The notes under the pieces: generated by a model | Told to the model about the DNA's origin: nothing | Database searches by the model: none | What the model saw: only the letters and a program-made list of their open reading frames with translations | Shown: piece after piece, positions 2,785 through 40,771 of the stretch | How positions within the stretch are numbered: the stretch's first letter is position 1 | How the letters are laid out: every line of letters begins with the position of its first letter | Origin: Catajapyx aquilonaris | Taxonomy: Eukaryota | Direction: 5' to 3' | Assembly: GCA_000934665.2 (NCBI GenBank) | Contig: JYFJ02003455.1 | Span: 1-41,351 of the forward strand | DNA length: 41,351 bases | Made by a program: the position numbers and the translations under genes

Positions 2785-3848
2785 TCATATCCGGTAACGA
2801 GGGTTCTTCATCGCCTCCTGCTGACCGCAATCGAATATGTCAGCGTGGCAAAAGTAGAAGATCTGGTAGGAGATGTCCCATATGGCCTTCAACTTGGTAC
2901 TGAAATTGGGGGGAAGCTGTTCAGATGAGCCATAGAGATTCTAACGCTGAATCACTATTAAATTAATTTTAAAAGTCGAACAAAAAACTAACCCGATGGA
3001 ACGGATTGCAACTTCCTGATCTGAGTCTTCGGTCCACACCTCGATCCTGTTGCCCCAAGCCCTGCAACCCGCGACGGCCCCAGTCACCTGGACGCCGTAC
3101 AACTGGAAACCCGAACCGACGATGCACAACAGCTGCAACATGAAATATTCCCCATGAATTTCCGTCGAATTCTCGCCAAAAACGCTGACTTACAGTCTGC
3201 ATCCACTTGTCCCTGATCATGTCCCGAGGGGCGTTCTTCCCCAGCGGGATCCTAAAGTGACCTCCGTACTTGTTATCGTCTGACTCCCAAATAGGCTTGA
3301 CTCCGTCTCTGAAGCAAGCGTAGTCGTACCCCCAGTAGTTCAGTGGACCAGGGTCATCTGTATCCTCCCACACCCTATGGGTGGTGTACCATTGTTAACA
3401 ATTGTTAACCGGCTTTGGTTCATCGAGGTGCTTACCGTATGAAGGCAGGAAGAGACTTCAGGAGTATCAGGGGAGCTAGTTTGTGTCCCCACCTCTTCCT
3501 CTTCTGTGAGTAGGTACGGATGACCCACATGTTCCACCCGGCACCCAGGAGAGGCATGGCCCCCTGAAGCTCATCTGGAGGGAGATACCGGTTCACAGTA
3601 GGCAGCGGATCTCCGTACATGTAGTACATCACTGGTTCGATAGGTGTCTGGACACTCTGGTTGTATTCCCTAGGGTAGAAGCAGGGTGCCAGGGCGGACA
3701 ACTCCACTTTTGAACTAGTTGGTGCGTCACCTCCTCCGACGTCCATGTGTTCCTCTGGTGGTACCACAGTCTCCTTCTCTTCGATGGTAACGTCCCCACT
3801 GCCGTCTCCAAGCTCCATTCCAATCTCAAGGGTCGAGGCACCCTCCAT
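2785..3848 (-). CDS. eIF4E: Divergent class I-derived eIF4E paralog with N-terminal extension. Exons 3848-3436, 3374-3194, 3132-2993, 2899-2785; 282 aa
   Basis: Three GT-AG introns (3435-3375 GTAAG..CATAG, 61 nt; 3193-3133 GTAAGT..TGCAG, 61 nt; 2992-2900 GTTAGT..TTTCAG, 93 nt) join into one open 849-nt frame ending in TGA. The protein aligns by eye to eIF4E: PLLGAGWNMW~HPLQNRWALW; GYDYACFRDGVKPIWESDDNKYGG~GCDYSLFKDGIEPMWEDEKNKRGG; KWMQTLLCIVG~FWLETLLCLIG; VTGAVAGCRAWGNRIEVWT~VCGAVVNVRAKGDKIAIWT; YFCHAD~YQSHAD. An acceptor-like CTCTCAG just upstream of the ATG suggests a further 5' exon. Confidence 0.92.
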
Positions 3849-4439
3849 TAGATTCCTGAGAGTTTGAAAGGCCCGACCGTTACTTTAGGTTCTCAACAAT
3901 TTGTAGACCACCAGTTGATTACATGACAACATGGATCAAGCAAGTTCGAAAAGTACATGTGACCAAGCATCGCAATGTCACACTTTTCCACTAGTACAAA
4001 TTCAAGTCGGGCGAATATCAAACTGTGGACCTCCACTTTGTTCCACTCAGCATAGAACACACCCAACGTCTTAAGGAGATGACCTTTCGGACTTGGACGA
4101 AATAACTGTGACAGAGCCATGCCACGAACATATTGAGAATAATTTATAATATGCATGAATAACTGACCTTTATGAGCGGCTGCCCTATTATAAAATCACA
4201 GGACGACGTACAGCTCCTCTCTCTGTTCAGGCAGAAATGGAATTAACAACGATCGAGTGTCAGCAACAATGTGTGTCAACAGCGCCATGGTTATCATGGA
4301 TGCGTGCATGGATGTCGAGTAGTGGCCTTGGAGTAGTGGTTCCCCAGGTTACCGTCAAACATGAAATGTGCACAAAATTATATAAATAACTTATATTTAA
4401 TATATAATTACCAGAATATCTTTTAGCATCCTTGACATT

Positions 4440-14429: not shown

Positions 14430-14680
14430 TACGTGTAACAGTTTAAGCATATACATGTGTGTGAACTCTTTCCTAACTGCCAATATTTAACGTTTCACTA
14501 AAATTGCACGTTAAACCTGTGAAAAATATCTGCAAGGAATTAGCGGAAGTTATTATTTTATGGAAAAGTTTCAGTGACTAAGTGACAATGTGAATTAATT
14601 TATGAATTTAAATCGTTCTTGACATGGCGGATATCATGTGGGTTTCAAATACATGCAATTGACTGAATATTTACATTCCC

Positions 14681-14980
14681 ACCGAAGCAGTTTGGAGTAG
14701 GGGATATGGTGTCCGACTGCTAATCGGGAGGTCCTGGGATCAAATCCCGGGCCGCGGCCGACAACTCTGACCGTGGTTTTCTGTGGTTTCCCACGGTCCT
14801 TCCAGGAAAATTCCGGAGTTGTTTCCGTAATTAATGGGCCATAGCCGCTTCCTTCCGTCCCTATCCTATCCCAAAAAGCGCAGTAAAATGCAAGCAAAGA
14901 GTTCCAGGCAAAACAAAAACTTCCCCCCTAAAGAGCCGATAGGCTGATAACGGGGTATGAATTATTATTAATATAGTATT
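14681..14980 (+). mobile_element. tRNA-derived SINE, family B
   Basis: Ser(GCT)-like anticodon arm, B-box, ATT tail, 15-bp TSD AATATTTACATTCCC. Confidence 0.92.
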
Positions 14981-19612: not shown

Positions 19613-20562
19613 TTAATAATAATCAAGTACGGTACACCTGTGAAACTGTTTTCTAAACAGAAACAAGATTAGCAAATCACGAGAGCGTGATTCGACAAGA
19701 CTTTTTCTCATTCTTTTAACTCTTAAACTGCTGCAGCGTTGCCACTATTCTCCCACCGCTTGACTGAATCGTATTTAAAAAATTCAATATCTCACCAAGG
19801 CGATGTATTAGCCCCTTGTCGCGTATATCATTCGAACCGCATTGAATCGCTGCTCCCGCCAGATCTACTACGCACCTCCCACGATCTAGGCCGTGGATAA
19901 CATAACAGCCATAACTACATATATACTCAGCTACTCAGAGGTCAGAAAAAACGTAGCGGTGAAATTTACGGGTTCAAAGAACTATTATATGCAAAATATC
20001 GCTTAGATTCCGATATAACTCGTTTCTAAAGTCCCAGAATTTAGCTAGAATTCATACAATCTCTATCATTACGCATAGAACTCTTTCCAATATGGCGGCC
20101 GGAAGATGACTTCAGTCGAAAAAGTCCGACAAAGCACTTGAGCATGTGATTTTTGTGTTGAATTCTGCGTTTTTAGCTTGTGAATATGCCGAAAACCGCA
20201 TTCATTTATGATTTATAGTTGTTGTTTTTTACACAAAATTCTCAAAATATTTGTCCGGATTTGTCCGTGGAGGACGGACATGGCGGGGAGAGAGTGTATA
20301 TGAGGATGTGAATCGATATATCGATACCGAGATATCGTAACCTAGGCAACTCCGTATCGATTACAGTATCGGCCTGGACGATAACATCATGGCGGCTGAG
20401 GACCCGCATCGCAAACATGTCCAACGTCAGGAATTAATTCCACAGCCCCTGTGTCAGAGCGCCAGGTAAAACCCAGGTAAATCCCCGACACACCTGGTCA
20501 AGAATCCATGGAAACTAATTTCGAAATCCGACGATAACCCGCCCGTAAAGTAGACTTGTGTG

Positions 20563-20878
20563 ACCGAAGCAGTAGTGGTGGAGTGAATAGGGTATCCGAC
20601 TGCTAATCGGGAGGTCCTGGGTTCGAATCCCGGAGGCCGGCGACCCTGACCATGGTTTTCTGTGGTTTCCCATGGTCCTTGCAGGATAATTCCGGGGTCG
20701 TTACCGTAATATAGGCCACAGCCGCTTCCTTCCTTCCCTTTCCCTGCTTCATTTCAGATGATGAGAAAATAGTAAAAAAATGGAAGAGTTCCAGACAAAA
20801 AAATTGGGAGAAATCCCCCCCTAGGAAGGCCCGTAGGCTGATAATGGGGTATCAAATTATTATTATTATTATTATTAT
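20563..20878 (+). mobile_element. tRNA-derived SINE, family B
   Basis: B-box GGTTCGAATCC, (ATT)n tail, 17-bp TSD TAAAGTAGACTTGTGTG. Confidence 0.92.
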
Positions 20879-21660
20879 TAAAGTAGACTTGTGTGGATAG
20901 AGTGAACCCGGATAACCGGAAGTGGTGGATCACCGGATTGCCCATGAAACCTATTTAGGTCACGCTTAATCCGAATCCGAAAACCGTTTATCTCTATCGC
21001 TTGCGGTTTAGGCCCTGATACCTGTCCACAGACGGACAGACAGAGCCGTTCTATAAGTATTTTTTGTCGATGAGAAAAAGTCTAAAACAAGGGGTCGAAT
21101 TTTCGAAATTTTGACCCCTTGTATTTTTCTGCCATGTCCCTTTTTGGACTCTCTTGCAGAGACCAGAAACTCCAGATGCCAAGGCGCACTGTGCGGAGGC
21201 TGCTCAATGTGCATGTAATACCCTGTATTATTACTTTGTAATTTGGCCCGGGTGTAAATCACGTAGGTGGACGTTGGCACAAGTCCACGTACCAGAGTAG
21301 ATGCTGCTCCGCAATTAACTGGAGTAACTTTGATTAATCTTTCGTAGACTTGGTTCGCAGCGTGAAGGTTAGGTCGTTACGTTTATAGTGAGATTTATAA
21401 TAAAGCGGGTCGTCTGACAATTGGCCTATTTCACGCCCCTGTTTTAAAATGGTCTCAAGTTCATTTTATCCTAGATTTTAAACATTGTGTCTATGTCGTC
21501 AGCGTACAAGTGAAACACACTTGACATTGGAAGTCAAATTTCGGTTCGGAATTAAGTGCTATGTAGCATTTCAAATACCATATCGCTAGTTCTAAATATT
21601 CATAAGGAGCCAGGAAGCCAGCATCTTCTGTCTTCACTAGCATGTAAGCAAGTACAAGGT

Positions 21661-22308
21661 TGGGAGGCATGGTGGTCTGATGGTTACGCCATTGGCCAGC
21701 CAAGCGGGAGGCCGGGGTTCAAATCCCGTCCCGGTCACCTCTGCTTGCCCGGGTCTTTTTCCGCTTTTCACCCGACATGCCGGGGCAGAATTGCACTCCC
21801 TACTCTGCCCTGGGCCAGGAGAAACGGTCTGGTGTATTTCAGAAAGTCAGAAATGACTATAAATTACAGCGCCCTCCCTTGGGAACCTCCCCTTCACCCT
21901 TAAAGGAAGGGTTCAGTGATTTTGCATGTTGAGCCCCAAAAATCAAACACGACTCCCTGATTTGAAATATCTGATCCGTTTTGTTGGCAAATGCACCATA
22001 AGCGTAAAATTTCAAGTCAAAGTTGATTTTAAAAAAAAAAATCAGCGCCGAACACGGCTTCCCTCTAGCCACAAGAGTGGAAGCTTCGATGCAGCGCACT
22101 GGTGGCAGGTTACCGGAATTTCCGCGGGAGGCGCTGGCTGTACGCTTACCGTATCGAATACAGTAGCGGATATGGACTTTCACCTAACGGAATTTGTTTA
22201 CGCGGCGTCAGATTCCAAAACTGACCACATTTTTGGAATCAGGGAGTCTTCCTTGATCTCTGAAGCCCAACATACAAAATCACTGAACCCTTCCTTTAAA
22301 AGGGCTAA
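21661..22308 (+). mobile_element. tRNA-derived SINE, family C, interrupted at its 3' end by a MITE
   Basis: A-box TGGTCTGATGG, B-box GGTTCAAATCC; TSD AAGTACAAGGT at 21650-21660 and 22309-22319. Confidence 0.85.
21904..22295. mobile_element. TTAA-target MITE (Kolobok-like AG termini)
   Basis: TTAA|AGGAAGGGTTCAGTGATTTTG ... CAAAATCACTGAACCCTTCCT|TTAA; imperfect IR extends further inward. Confidence 0.85.
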
Positions 22309-22964: not shown

Positions 22965-23554
22965 CATGGTGTTTCAACTTTTTTGTCCGAACATTTATCG
23001 GATAACTGCACGTAGCTGCTACTTTTTTGTTACCCCGTGATAGGGCCAGAGGCCCTCTTAGAGGGGAAGGGGAAGTTCCCAAGGGAGGGCGCTGTGCGGT
23101 AGTCATTTCTGACATTCTTTAAACACCAGGTCTTTTCTCCTGGCCCCGGGCAGAGAAGAGAGTGCAATTCTGCCCCGGCATGTCGGGTGAAAAGCGGAAA
23201 AAGACCCAGCCAAGCAGAGGAGACGGGGACAGGATTTGAACCCCGGCCTCCCTCTTGGCTGGCCAGTGGCGTAACCACTAGACCACCATGCCTCCCTACG
23301 TAGCTGCTACTTTGTAAGCAGTGACTTGCAAACGGTGATTTTTCGGAGGGACGGGGAATATTCCCTGCGAATCGTAGATTGAAGTGGCACACCCGCTGAA
23401 AATTGAGGGTCACACATGCCATGGGATGTGTGACCCTCTTTTTCCCCATTCCCCATTCATCCAACAAATCACCGGTTGCAAGTCACTGCTTACCAAGTAG
23501 CAGCTACATGCAATTTTCTAATAACTGTTCGGACAAAAAAGTTGAAACACACTG
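22965..23554. mobile_element. Tc1/mariner-type MITE carrying a SINE
   Basis: TIR GTGTTTCAACTTTTTTGTCCGAACA, TA flanks, long imperfect palindrome. Confidence 0.85.
23026..23297 (-). mobile_element. tRNA-derived SINE, family C
   Basis: Full head and tail; 16-bp TSD ACGTAGCTGCTACTTT. Confidence 0.92.
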
Positions 23555-34287: not shown

Positions 34288-34906
34288 TTTTTTTAAAAAT
34301 ATGTTTTTAAATACCCCGTGATAGGGAGATGAAGTGGCGTCGCGGTAACGCGTGCGCCCACGGATATGAAGGTCCCGGGTTCAATCCCCACCCGGGGTTC
34401 CCACCTTTACCCGTGCAGAGTTGGGCCATCTCTGGCTTCATTTCGGGTGGCAATTTCCGACAGACTAAGCCATCCGGGGGAGTTCACAAAATGACTATTA
34501 GAGACATTGCACTTGCACTTTGCACATCCCCTCCCACCCACCCTTGGAGTACACTAATTAAGATTCTTCTTAAACTCGCTCCAAAAACAAATCCTAACGG
34601 TGGTAACCCACCCCCCCTAAGGAGTAGTATAACTCCCCCGTGGGGTAATTTTAAAAAACGTGATAGGGCGGAAGGGGGAGGTTCCCAAGGGAGGACACTG
34701 TAATTATAGTCATTTCTGACTTTCTGAAATACACCAGACCTTTTCTCCTGGCCCTGGGCAGAGTGGGGAGTGCATTTCTGCCCTGCATGTCGGATGAAAA
34801 GCGGAAAAAGACCTGGCCAGGCAGAGGTAACGAGGATGGGATTTGAACCCTGGCCTCCCGCTTGGCTGGCCAGTGGCGTAACCACCAGACCACCATGCCT
34901 CCCCGA
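34288..34906 (-). mobile_element. SINE family C, split by a family D insertion
   Basis: TSD GTTTCGATGA at 34278-34287 and 34907-34916. Confidence 0.85.
34325..34658 (+). mobile_element. tRNA-derived SINE, family D
   Basis: Head with B-box GGTTCAATCC; duplicated CGTGATAG(GG) target. Confidence 0.88.
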
Positions 34907-35069
34907 GTTTCGATGAGTTCTCTCCGCGTTCTCCAAGATTTTCTCGGGATTTTACCGTTTTCTGCCACTATCAAAATCTAGCATGGAGCAAGCATGAATT
35001 AAAAGCGGGAATTTAAAGAGGAGCTCCCTAAGAGGCGACATATACCAGATGAATGAAAGGAATATTATA

Positions 35070-37903: not shown

Positions 37904-39828
37904 TATGTTTGGAAGTAATTGGTGTCCCGTTCCGTGATGAGGTTTTGCTCTTGGGCCCGAAAAAGCTACTTCCAATAATTGAAATATTTCTTTGATCTCA
38001 ACATGTGTATGAAATATACGATGTGTGTGATAAAATGCCACTTCCATATTTAAGATTGGTCCACAAAGAAGTGAGATCATGGTGTCCAATTCCACCTGCG
38101 ACGACCATTCCTGGAGACGCTTAGTGGGCCTTTTCATTACACACAACATTTATCTCGGAACTAAATTCTGAGCTGTATTCAGATCAACCAAATTAATTAT
38201 ATCAATAGTTCTGAATCAGGTTCAAAAACAATCTGGTAACATCGGTCACAAAATACTCCATAATTATATTATGGACGAGTTTGGCCTGTATTATTTAATA
38301 TGATAGCCTCTGCATATTTTATTGATAAAGCGTGTCGATTAATTCCTGCCTAGTGAACATATTCCTTGAATTCCATATTCCTTTTGATTCTAGAGAGGGG
38401 AATTATTAACTGGGTATCATTTTAAGGAGATACATTACCATAGACTGCAAAACGGTTTCTCGGAGCGACGTTAAGTTCCGTAAGCGGAAAGGGAGGATGG
38501 AATATTGAAGGAAAATGGGAGTCTTGGTAGGGGAAGGGAATCTAAATCCTCAAAAATCAATATTGGAAAATGGTCTGAATATCAAAACAAATATAAGGGG
38601 AGTTCAAAATATAAAGATCCATAGTACAGTGTGACGTTCCTACGTCACTCTAGGCCGCCTAGGGGAAGAGGGGTCGATCCTCCAAAGGAAACAACTTTTC
38701 CAAGAACACTTGGAGTGAGTACGACTCAGCCCTGGCTCAACCCAGCCAAGACTGCTCGAGCCCCGCCATCTAGACACAATCTAGACACTGCCACCAGAGG
38801 CAAACACTTATAGTAGTCTACCCACTCAATACCGGTACATGATCTCAGACTGTGACGGGGTTGTTACAATAGCTACTGATGGCTAACAACTATGGATGGC
38901 GTCTCCCATTACTACTGCACAAAGACTGCAGAAGTAGACTATGAAGAGTTGATGCAGTCGAAAATTAACATGGCCGTATCTTCGTAAAAAAACTTCAGAA
39001 ATTAAGTCTTAAAAATTGTCACCAAACATAATCAAATATTACCCACTATCCACATCCTGGGGCTCCCAGAAACTCCTGAATATTTCACCATTTTTCACAA
39101 TTTTCATTATGGCGTATATAAGGATTTTTTCATATACTAATATGGTCATGTCATATTTCCCTCTACTTTGATGTGAGTTTACACAGCGGCCTACTTTGAA
39201 AAAAAGAGTAGCTCCCACTCTATTAATTTTGGCTCAACATAACAATTATTGTTGCGATTATTGTTGCCCAGGCCTATAATAGCAAAATGCTGCATTATTA
39301 CCTCGCTCGAGGCACTACACCGTATATCATTACCTGCTTTACATGGTGGGCGGCCTGATTGCGATTAATGCTAGAAAATGATTTCCGGTTAAGCTTTCCC
39401 CCATTTTCATCTCCGGGAGAAACCTAATATACAGGGAATTGCATTATTAAAGATTGCTGGATAAACGTTGCCCCCCCTATAATAAGGCCGACAGATAGAC
39501 AGCTTTATTGGAATCTGCATGATGTTGGCTAACAACACCATAACACACTTTGCTCTGTAGAGAAAAATGTTATATACTTGTTACGTGTATTTTTTGGTTA
39601 ATTTTGTGTCTATTATACAATCATATTGATTTCCAAATTCATAGTGCACAGGTATAAGCTTACAATACCACATTGAAAACTGTAGGTGTGTACCTGGTGT
39701 GTACAATATTTCGGATAGACAAATAAAGCTGGTGCAGTGTAATGTACAATACATACAATTATTACAAATGGGTGGAATAATTGCTATAGTTATTCTCACT
39801 TAACCAGCGTTATTTGCTTATGTACCTA

Positions 39829-40771
39829 TAGAGATGGGCAGTATTTAAATACAAATGTATTTAAATACGTATTGAAATACTTTTTGGCATTGAGAGATGT
39901 ATATATATATATATATATATATAACTATATTGGTTCTCCTGTATTTAAATACTGTATTTCAATACATTTCTGTGCATTTAAATACTGTATTTCAATACAT
40001 TTCTGTGCATTTAAATACTGTATTTCAATACATTTCTGTGTATTTAAATACTGTATTTCAATACATTTCTGTGTATTTAAATACTGTATTTAAATACATT
40101 TCAGTCTATTTAAATACTGTATCTCAATACATTTCTGTCTATTTAAATACTGTATTTCAATACATTTCTGTGTATTTAAATACGGTATTTCAATACATTT
40201 CTGAGTGAGTATTTAAATACAGAAGGATTTAAATACATATCGTAAATACATTCCATAACTCCGTTTTAATTTATATTTGCATAATTCTTAATTCTGAAAC
40301 CTAATGAAAGAAAAGCAGCCAATTAGCAGCTTTTTCTCCTAGGCAGCTTGCAGCATGATAATCATAGGTGGAGGAGACCAATTGGAAAGTATGGAGTTGG
40401 TGAAGGGGAAAACCCTCAAGTAGCCTACTGGGAAAATATTTGGGTGTGTCATGGGTTATGGGTCTGTTATGTTTTCTTATTTTTATCCAAAGAATGATGG
40501 TAAGAAATTAGTTGCACATTAACAAAAACATGGATTTGAAATGTATTTAGTATCTAATTACATTTTTATGCAGTAGATAGTATTTAGCATTTAATTACAT
40601 TTTATGCAGTAGATAGTATTTAGCATTTAATTACATTTTTATCCAGTAGATAGTATTTAGCACTTAATTACATTTTTATGCAGTAGATAGTATTTAGCAT
40701 TTAATTACATTTTTATGCAGTAGATAGTATTTAGTATTTAATTACGTCCAAGTATTTAGTGCCCATCACTG
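39829..40771. mobile_element. hAT-like non-autonomous element with subterminal minisatellites
   Basis: TIR (T/C)AG(A/T)GATGGGCA; about 8 x 33-bp repeats at 39938-40205 and about 5 x 36-37-bp repeats at 40544-40745; 8-bp TSD not clean. Confidence 0.75.

Follow-up and report, generated by a model that had tools for sequence, protein, structure and literature searches.

The window analysed here (41,351 nucleotides, Catajapyx aquilonaris contig JYFJ02003455.1) harbours an eIF4E-family gene on the minus strand (3848-2785; four exons, intact, 282 unbroken codons), the predicted product of which carries a PAM2-like motif in its N-terminal extension. The motif is kept in a private clade of paralogues, in which several residues of the eIF4G/4E-BP site are replaced and those of the cap pocket are retained. 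On balance, we lean slightly towards a lineage-specific eIF4E that would bind the cap via its core and the MLLE domain of PABP via PAM2, without eIF4G, keeping mRNAs closed, protected and untranslated.

The features of the gene are as follows (window coordinates; eIF4E residue numbering after PMC1260017):

1221..4375: block also present on contig C4017 (DNA identity 79-90 %, extending over introns and flanks), the gene having undergone segmental duplication
3856..3870, minus strand: acceptor-like site, 7 nt ahead of the ATG
3436..3848, minus strand: coding exon 1, beginning with the ATG at 3848; encodes an N-terminal extension of 97 residues and the start of the eIF4E core
3710 to 3672, minus strand: PAM2-like motif, residues K47-P59 = KVELSALAPCFYP, from the translation
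3672-3701, minus strand: invariant motif core L50-P59, LSALAPCFYP
3489..3491, minus strand: codon of Trp120 (equivalent of cap-stacking Trp56), kept, from the alignment
3438..3440, minus strand: codon of Ile137 at the Trp73 position (eIF4G/4E-BP site), Trp lost
3375..3435, minus strand: intron 1, 61 nt, GT-AG; position and phase match the genome's canonical eIF4E1
3194..3374, minus strand: coding exon 2; Trp167/Glu168 kept as equivalents of Trp102/Glu103, Glu132 position occupied by Gln197
3133..3193, minus strand: intron 2, 61 nt, GT-AG
2993..3132, minus strand: coding exon 3; Arg222, Arg227 and Trp231 (Trp166 equivalent) kept
2900..2992, minus strand: intron 3, 93 nt, GT-AG; position and phase match canonical eIF4E1
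2785..2899, minus strand: coding exon 4, ending in a TGA stop

Judged by its IF4E domain and cap-pocket residues, the gene is a member of the eIF4E family. Pfam IF4E (PF01652) matches exons 2 and 3 with 33.1 and 32.7 bits, respectively (E 6e-8 and 8e-8; both exon frames above the cut-off of 28.7 bits), and eIF4E chains are the best matches in a PDB search (E 9e-10). The eIF4E core begins near residue 98; exon 1 contains the equivalents of Trp43 and Trp56 as well as Ile137 at the position of Trp73. Comparable acceptor-like sites are present ahead of the ATG in three paralogues and, since these differ in phase, the site in the window gene probably belongs to a 5'-UTR intron.

An earlier note on this DNA had proposed a PAM2-like motif at 3672..3710 without naming a strand. 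The motif is indeed present there on the minus strand, the plus-strand reading of the same bases yielding an unrelated peptide. As claimed, its surroundings are acidic and rich in Pro/Gly (13 D/E, 2 K/R, 11 P/G and no aromatic residue among residues 1-49). This composition suggests that the N-terminal extension is disordered; the AlphaFold model of exon 1, with a mean pLDDT of 41.7 throughout, is uninformative in this respect. Compared to the PAM2 consensus LNxxAxEFxP (PMC7356810), the four anchors named earlier (Leu3, Ala7, Phe10 and Pro12) are all in place with proper spacing, and this applies to all five motif-bearing members of the clade. The consensus residues Asn4 and Glu9 are replaced by Ser and Cys, likewise in 5/5 members, so that the substitution of the usual Glu by Cys reported for the window copy extends to the whole group. 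In shuffles of the 97-residue extension, the pattern L[NS]xxAxxFxP recurs in 8 of 200,000 cases and a looser one in 275 of 200,000, both patterns having been picked after the motif had been seen. Across 82,698 six-frame positions of the window, the strict pattern has a single occurrence, namely at the motif site, and even the loose one is absent from all 121 canonical eIF4Es compared (4,678 N-terminal residues). Conservation among the paralogues represents the stronger test, and on this ground a chance match was rejected.

The sequence LSALAPCFYP is identical in all four intact clade members (window, C4017, C1125 and C5750) and differs by one residue in the partial fifth member C7682. Mean pairwise identity (four members, near-twin C4017 omitted) amounts to 0.95 for residues 50-59 versus 0.32 for residues 1-47 and 0.39 for residues 61-97; the same comparison yields 0.50 and 0.60 for the core parts of exons 1 and 2, respectively. 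Within residues 1-199, the motif is the best-conserved 10-mer. Across its 10 codons, the window copy shows 4 synonymous differences to C1125 and 5 to C5750 but no non-synonymous one, whereas the flanks reach pN values of 0.37-0.51 in these two comparisons. The chance of zero replacements is about 5e-6 (C1125) and 4e-5 (C5750) at the rate of the linker and 0.02 and 0.001 at that of the core, these being rough probabilities that take sites as independent. Since synonymous but no amino acid differences are found, it is the protein rather than the DNA sequence that is being kept, and by this measure the motif is under purifying selection across the paralogues. Beyond the PAM2 anchors, Leu53, Pro55, Cys56 and Tyr58 are also invariant (5/5) without being needed by PAM2, a hint of a different or additional binding partner.

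Assignment of the motif to PAM2 draws on the anchors, the conserved island and the MLLE genes of the genome, and is not supported by the Pfam model. When the PAM2 HMM score is used as a check, as suggested in the earlier note, none of the five exon-1 translations matches PF07145; the window motif remains below the cut-off of 20 bits and is not among the 11 genome-wide matches. Of the five short motif peptides, only that of the C5750 paralogue gives a match, a weak one (E 0.21), and that of the window copy gives none. Among 24,736 Pfam families, PAM2 is the sole one touching any of the five peptides. A profile built from PAM2 motifs of the own genome (9 of 10 examined genome matches, selected for Asn4, so that Ser is penalised) scores the window motif at 5.7 bits versus 10-31 bits for the training motifs; 384 of 20,000 shuffles attain this value, and canonical eIF4Es score up to 9.9 by chance. 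When the motif alignment was run against PDB sequences, a single chance match (E 1.1) resulted.

The genome's closest PAM2 to the window motif (7/11 residues identical) is LNPLAPEFVPR of a HELZ-like helicase (C711:8586-8618), an LxxLAP-type PAM2 above the Pfam cut-off. In human HELZ, PAM2 overlaps with LxxLAP and binds PABP, binding being abolished by an F-to-A exchange (PMC3135610). In case of Leishmania eIF4E4, the E146A exchange raises the KD from 33 to 163 nM, i.e., binding is about five-fold weaker but retained (PMC6379680); since the exchange merely weakens binding, loss of the Glu may be tolerable in the window motif as well. Candidate targets are encoded in the genome, which harbours three PABP-type MLLE loci (KITGMLLE pocket) and one UBR5-like MLLE locus. 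From the combined sequence evidence, we consider it likely that the motif binds the MLLE domain of PABP. The two extra PABP-like loci (C3386:1339-1512 and C611:9179-9358) are 81 % and 77 % identical to the main locus and could possibly be dedicated partners of the eIF4E clade or decaying duplicates.

Searches with PF01652 and with individual exons revealed five relatives of the window gene in the genome (C4017, C1125, C5750, C7682 and C363). Three of them (C4017, C1125 and C5750) are intact and share its four-exon layout; their cores are 87.5 %, 70.1 % and 56.0 % identical to that of the window protein (canonical eIF4E1, 29 %). C7682 is more distant, comprises just two exons on its contig and carries an in-frame stop codon ahead of the motif. 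In this gene (L016:5860-7256, minus strand), the first half of exon 1 is present in tandem in at least three copies; the copy joined to the motif contains the in-frame TGA and one lying upstream has an open frame with a donor-like site at its end, such that alternative splicing might bypass the stop. A lone clade exon 3 near a contig end (C4661:14744-14872, minus strand) probably continues the C7682 gene beyond a break in the assembly. The C363 copy (C363:11250-13400, plus strand) is frameshifted, its exon 1 does not include the PAM2 region, and it is likely a pseudogene.

Phylogenetic analysis (trees of 31 and 18 rows, for which 23 and 13 homologues, respectively, were taken from the 120 listed) clusters the five tested members as a single group with support 100/100, the stem of which measures about 4 changes per column. 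The trees, which contain no kinetoplastid sequences, do not place the clade (AU p 0.079 for grouping with the own eIF4E1). Since introns 1 and 3 occupy the identical codon and phase as in the canonical eIF4E1 of the genome, the gene structure points to descent from the host's own class I gene. The window protein (Trp105 and Trp120) conforms to the class I rule of Trp at both positions 43 and 56 (PMC3382400). Class II or III identity was rejected, both Trp residues being present and separate class II (C430) and class III (C56) genes existing; viral origin was rejected in view of the spliceosomal introns shared with the host gene. The canonical eIF4E1 exon of the genome shares 75-76 % identity with proteins of silverfish, booklouse, locust, wasp and termite, which points to an insect-like host without close kin among the species listed. 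The class III-like eIF4E gene is located at C56:53154-53665; just two partial class III sequences in insects were reported in a 2012 survey (PMC3382400).

The core of the clade is predicted to retain the cap pocket. Trp56, Trp102, Glu103 and Trp166 correspond to Trp120, Trp167, Glu168 and Trp231 of the window protein and are kept in 4/4 intact members, as is the Trp43 position (window Trp105); these residues argue for cap binding by the clade. At what we take to be the phosphate-binding positions, Arg157 is kept, Lys162 is replaced by Arg and Arg112 by His, and the presumed further contact Lys159 is Arg in three members and Trp in the window copy. Given His at the Arg112 position, cap affinity may be lower.

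The surface for eIF4G and 4E-BP is remodelled. The position of Trp73 is occupied by Ile or Leu in 5/5 members, the alignment register at this site being fixed because a phase-2 intron in the next codon is common to canonical eIF4E1. Instead of the canonical (S/T)VxxFW, all five members read SLPAFI/L. Further contact residues are altered (His37 to Met/Lys, Leu131 to Met, Glu132 to Gln/Thr, Val69 to Leu); Pro38 and Leu135 are kept. A non-aromatic residue at position 73 is known to disrupt binding of both eIF4G and 4E-BP (PMC1260017). Judging from these residues, the clade has likely lost both interactions.

Orthologues outside of this genome were not found in the collections searched. Exon 1 yielded none among 282 candidates of longer proteins, the ESM Atlas search gave no usable match, and a metagenome scan revealed orthologues in 0 of 175 stretches. 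An exon-1 profile run over 1.84 billion representatives gave one match (E 2e-4), a repeat protein of 828 aa rich in Ser/Thr that on visual inspection seemed unrelated, and the sole hit among 1453 candidates for the exon-2 profile is a canonical eIF4E without the motif. The island-like conservation by which the earlier note proposed to judge the motif is evident among paralogues (0.95 versus 0.32/0.39) rather than orthologues. The collections include few insect genomes and provide weak evidence for lineage restriction of the clade. Because all conservation comes from one genome and no orthologue was found elsewhere, the claim for the motif is limited to one species for now.

In the reading we lean towards, the core would hold the cap and the PAM2, separated from the core by a flexible linker of about 40 residues, would hold PABP. 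The clade-wide gain of a PABP motif together with clade-wide loss of the eIF4G site suggests that one replaced the other. Without eIF4G, the usual recruitment of eIF4A or the 43S complex would not take place; the cap would be shielded and the MLLE site to which other PAM2 proteins dock would be occupied, the expected product being a closed, stable and silent mRNP. By analogy with LARP1 and eIF4E1b, a role in storage or repression is probable. As a tentative extension, which we regard as somewhat less likely than not, one may speculate about an animal eIF4E family, evolved independently of trypanosomes, in which the eIF4G/4E-BP site was swapped for a PABP hook, forming a single-protein, scaffold-free cap-to-tail clamp that is blind to 4E-BP/TOR and sets chosen mRNAs aside.

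The motif could also bind PABP in a protein that acts as an activator as in trypanosomes, via a specialised eIF4G or another scaffold contacting the remodelled surface. Leishmania eIF4E4 binds both PABP1 and eIF4G3 (PMC6379680), Drosophila eIF4E-3 with Trp exchanged for Phe still weakly binds eIF4G (PMC3382400), and Leu135, Pro38 and the hydrophobic nature of the Val69 position are kept in the clade; but the residue at position 73 is non-aromatic in 5/5 members and His37 and Glu132 are gone too, making an activator unlikely. We likewise consider it unlikely that the island docks a partner other than PABP, be it as a HIF-like LxxLAP prolyl-hydroxylation degron, as ligand of the UBR5 MLLE domain or by folding back onto the remodelled dorsal face of the core. 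The low PAM2 profile scores, the fit of LSALAP to LxxLAP, the invariance of Leu53, Pro55, Cys56 and Tyr58, and the UBR5-like gene would agree with such docking. However, Phe57 and Pro59, the PAM2 anchors beyond LxxLAP, are equally invariant, and LxxLAP alone arises in 517 of 200,000 shuffles versus 8 for the PAM2 pattern. Moreover, the overlap in HELZ is a PABP site and HELZ is not oxygen-regulated, the LxxLAP pattern alone being insufficient for HIF-type oxygen-dependent turnover (PMC3135610).

A further alternative concerns the window copy itself, which as a segmental duplicate of C4017 might be a young decaying gene that inherited a motif working in older clade members. Its branch accumulated 34 polarised changes (21 non-synonymous, 13 synonymous) versus 9 (4 and 5) on that of C4017, with 14 unassigned. 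The non-synonymous changes of the window copy include Arg-to-Trp at 224 in the phosphate-binding loop; furthermore, the N-terminus is shorter, exon 4 has a 2-residue deletion, and two other members look broken (frameshifts in C363, in-frame stop in C7682). Yet the frame of the window copy is open, its splice sites are canonical, and omega on its branch is about 0.45, which is lower than expected under neutrality (binomial p 0.02) and shows no significant difference to C4017 (Fisher p 0.46). Decay appears unlikely, and we take the window copy to be probably functional but possibly relaxing.

The favoured reading, a cap- and PABP-binding eIF4E without eIF4G, has partial counterparts in several known systems. 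Trypanosomatid eIF4E3 and eIF4E4 likewise combine an eIF4E core with an N-terminal PAM2 extension linking cap and PABP directly (PMC6379680, PMC11754739), as predicted here. They differ in having two to three motifs with Asn and Glu kept (MNPNATEFMP) and in also binding eIF4G, whereas the window gene encodes a single motif of the LxxLAP type with Ser and Cys at these positions and has lost residues of the eIF4G site. That the host's class I gene has introns in common with the window gene argues for an origin independent of the trypanosomatid proteins. The PAM2 of HELZ shares the LxxLAPxFxP spacing (PMC3135610), but sits in a helicase and has Asn4 and Glu9, unlike the Ser4/Cys9 motif of a cap-binding-type protein. 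LARP1 similarly contacts cap and, through a PAM2, PABP within one protein and has been linked to repression and stabilisation (PMC12645190); however, it uses a DM15 domain that reads the TOP motif instead of an eIF4E fold. Vertebrate eIF4E1b is class I-type and serves in mRNA storage; it binds the cap without binding eIF4G (PMC10883267). It has retained binding of 4E-BP and 4E-T and its targets are mRNAs with short tails, whereas in the window clade the 4G/4E-BP/4E-T surface looks lost and a putative PABP hook gained; no PAM2 is described for eIF4E1b in the excerpted text of PMC10883267. The Drosophila eIF4E-3 to -7 expansion is also a lineage-specific multiplication of class I genes with variable N-termini, yet most of the fly paralogues keep eIF4G binding (PMC3382400, PMC13733232).

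According to a paper of December 2024, PAM2 in an eIF4E has been reported for trypanosomatid eIF4E3 and eIF4E4 only (PMC11754739). Neither PAM2 nor PABP is mentioned in a 2026 review on the Drosophila paralogues (PMC13733232), nor is PABP in the 2012 insect survey (PMC3382400). No animal eIF4E with a PAM2/PABP link was apparent among the open-access papers listed. If the peptide binds, a direct link between cap and PABP would have arisen a second time independently, here accompanied by loss of the eIF4G site, and an eIF4E-PABP interface would be less likely to be unique to trypanosomes. A natural protein would then split the closed loop from eIF4G recruitment and render directly testable the much-debated issue whether joining of cap and tail alone activates, protects or silences an mRNA.

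In the remainder of the window, no Pfam match was obtained for the 16 longer open reading frames examined (of 73 listed, besides 5 analysed separately), and no tRNA was detected. Similar repeated frames at 14634-14927, 20454-20753, 21556-21932, 23030-23482 and 34484-34977 suggest dispersed short, SINE-like repeats, and a repeat similar to these is located in an intron of the C363 copy. At 39743-40208, a tandem repeat of about 27 bases gives rise to repetitive open frames on the plus strand.
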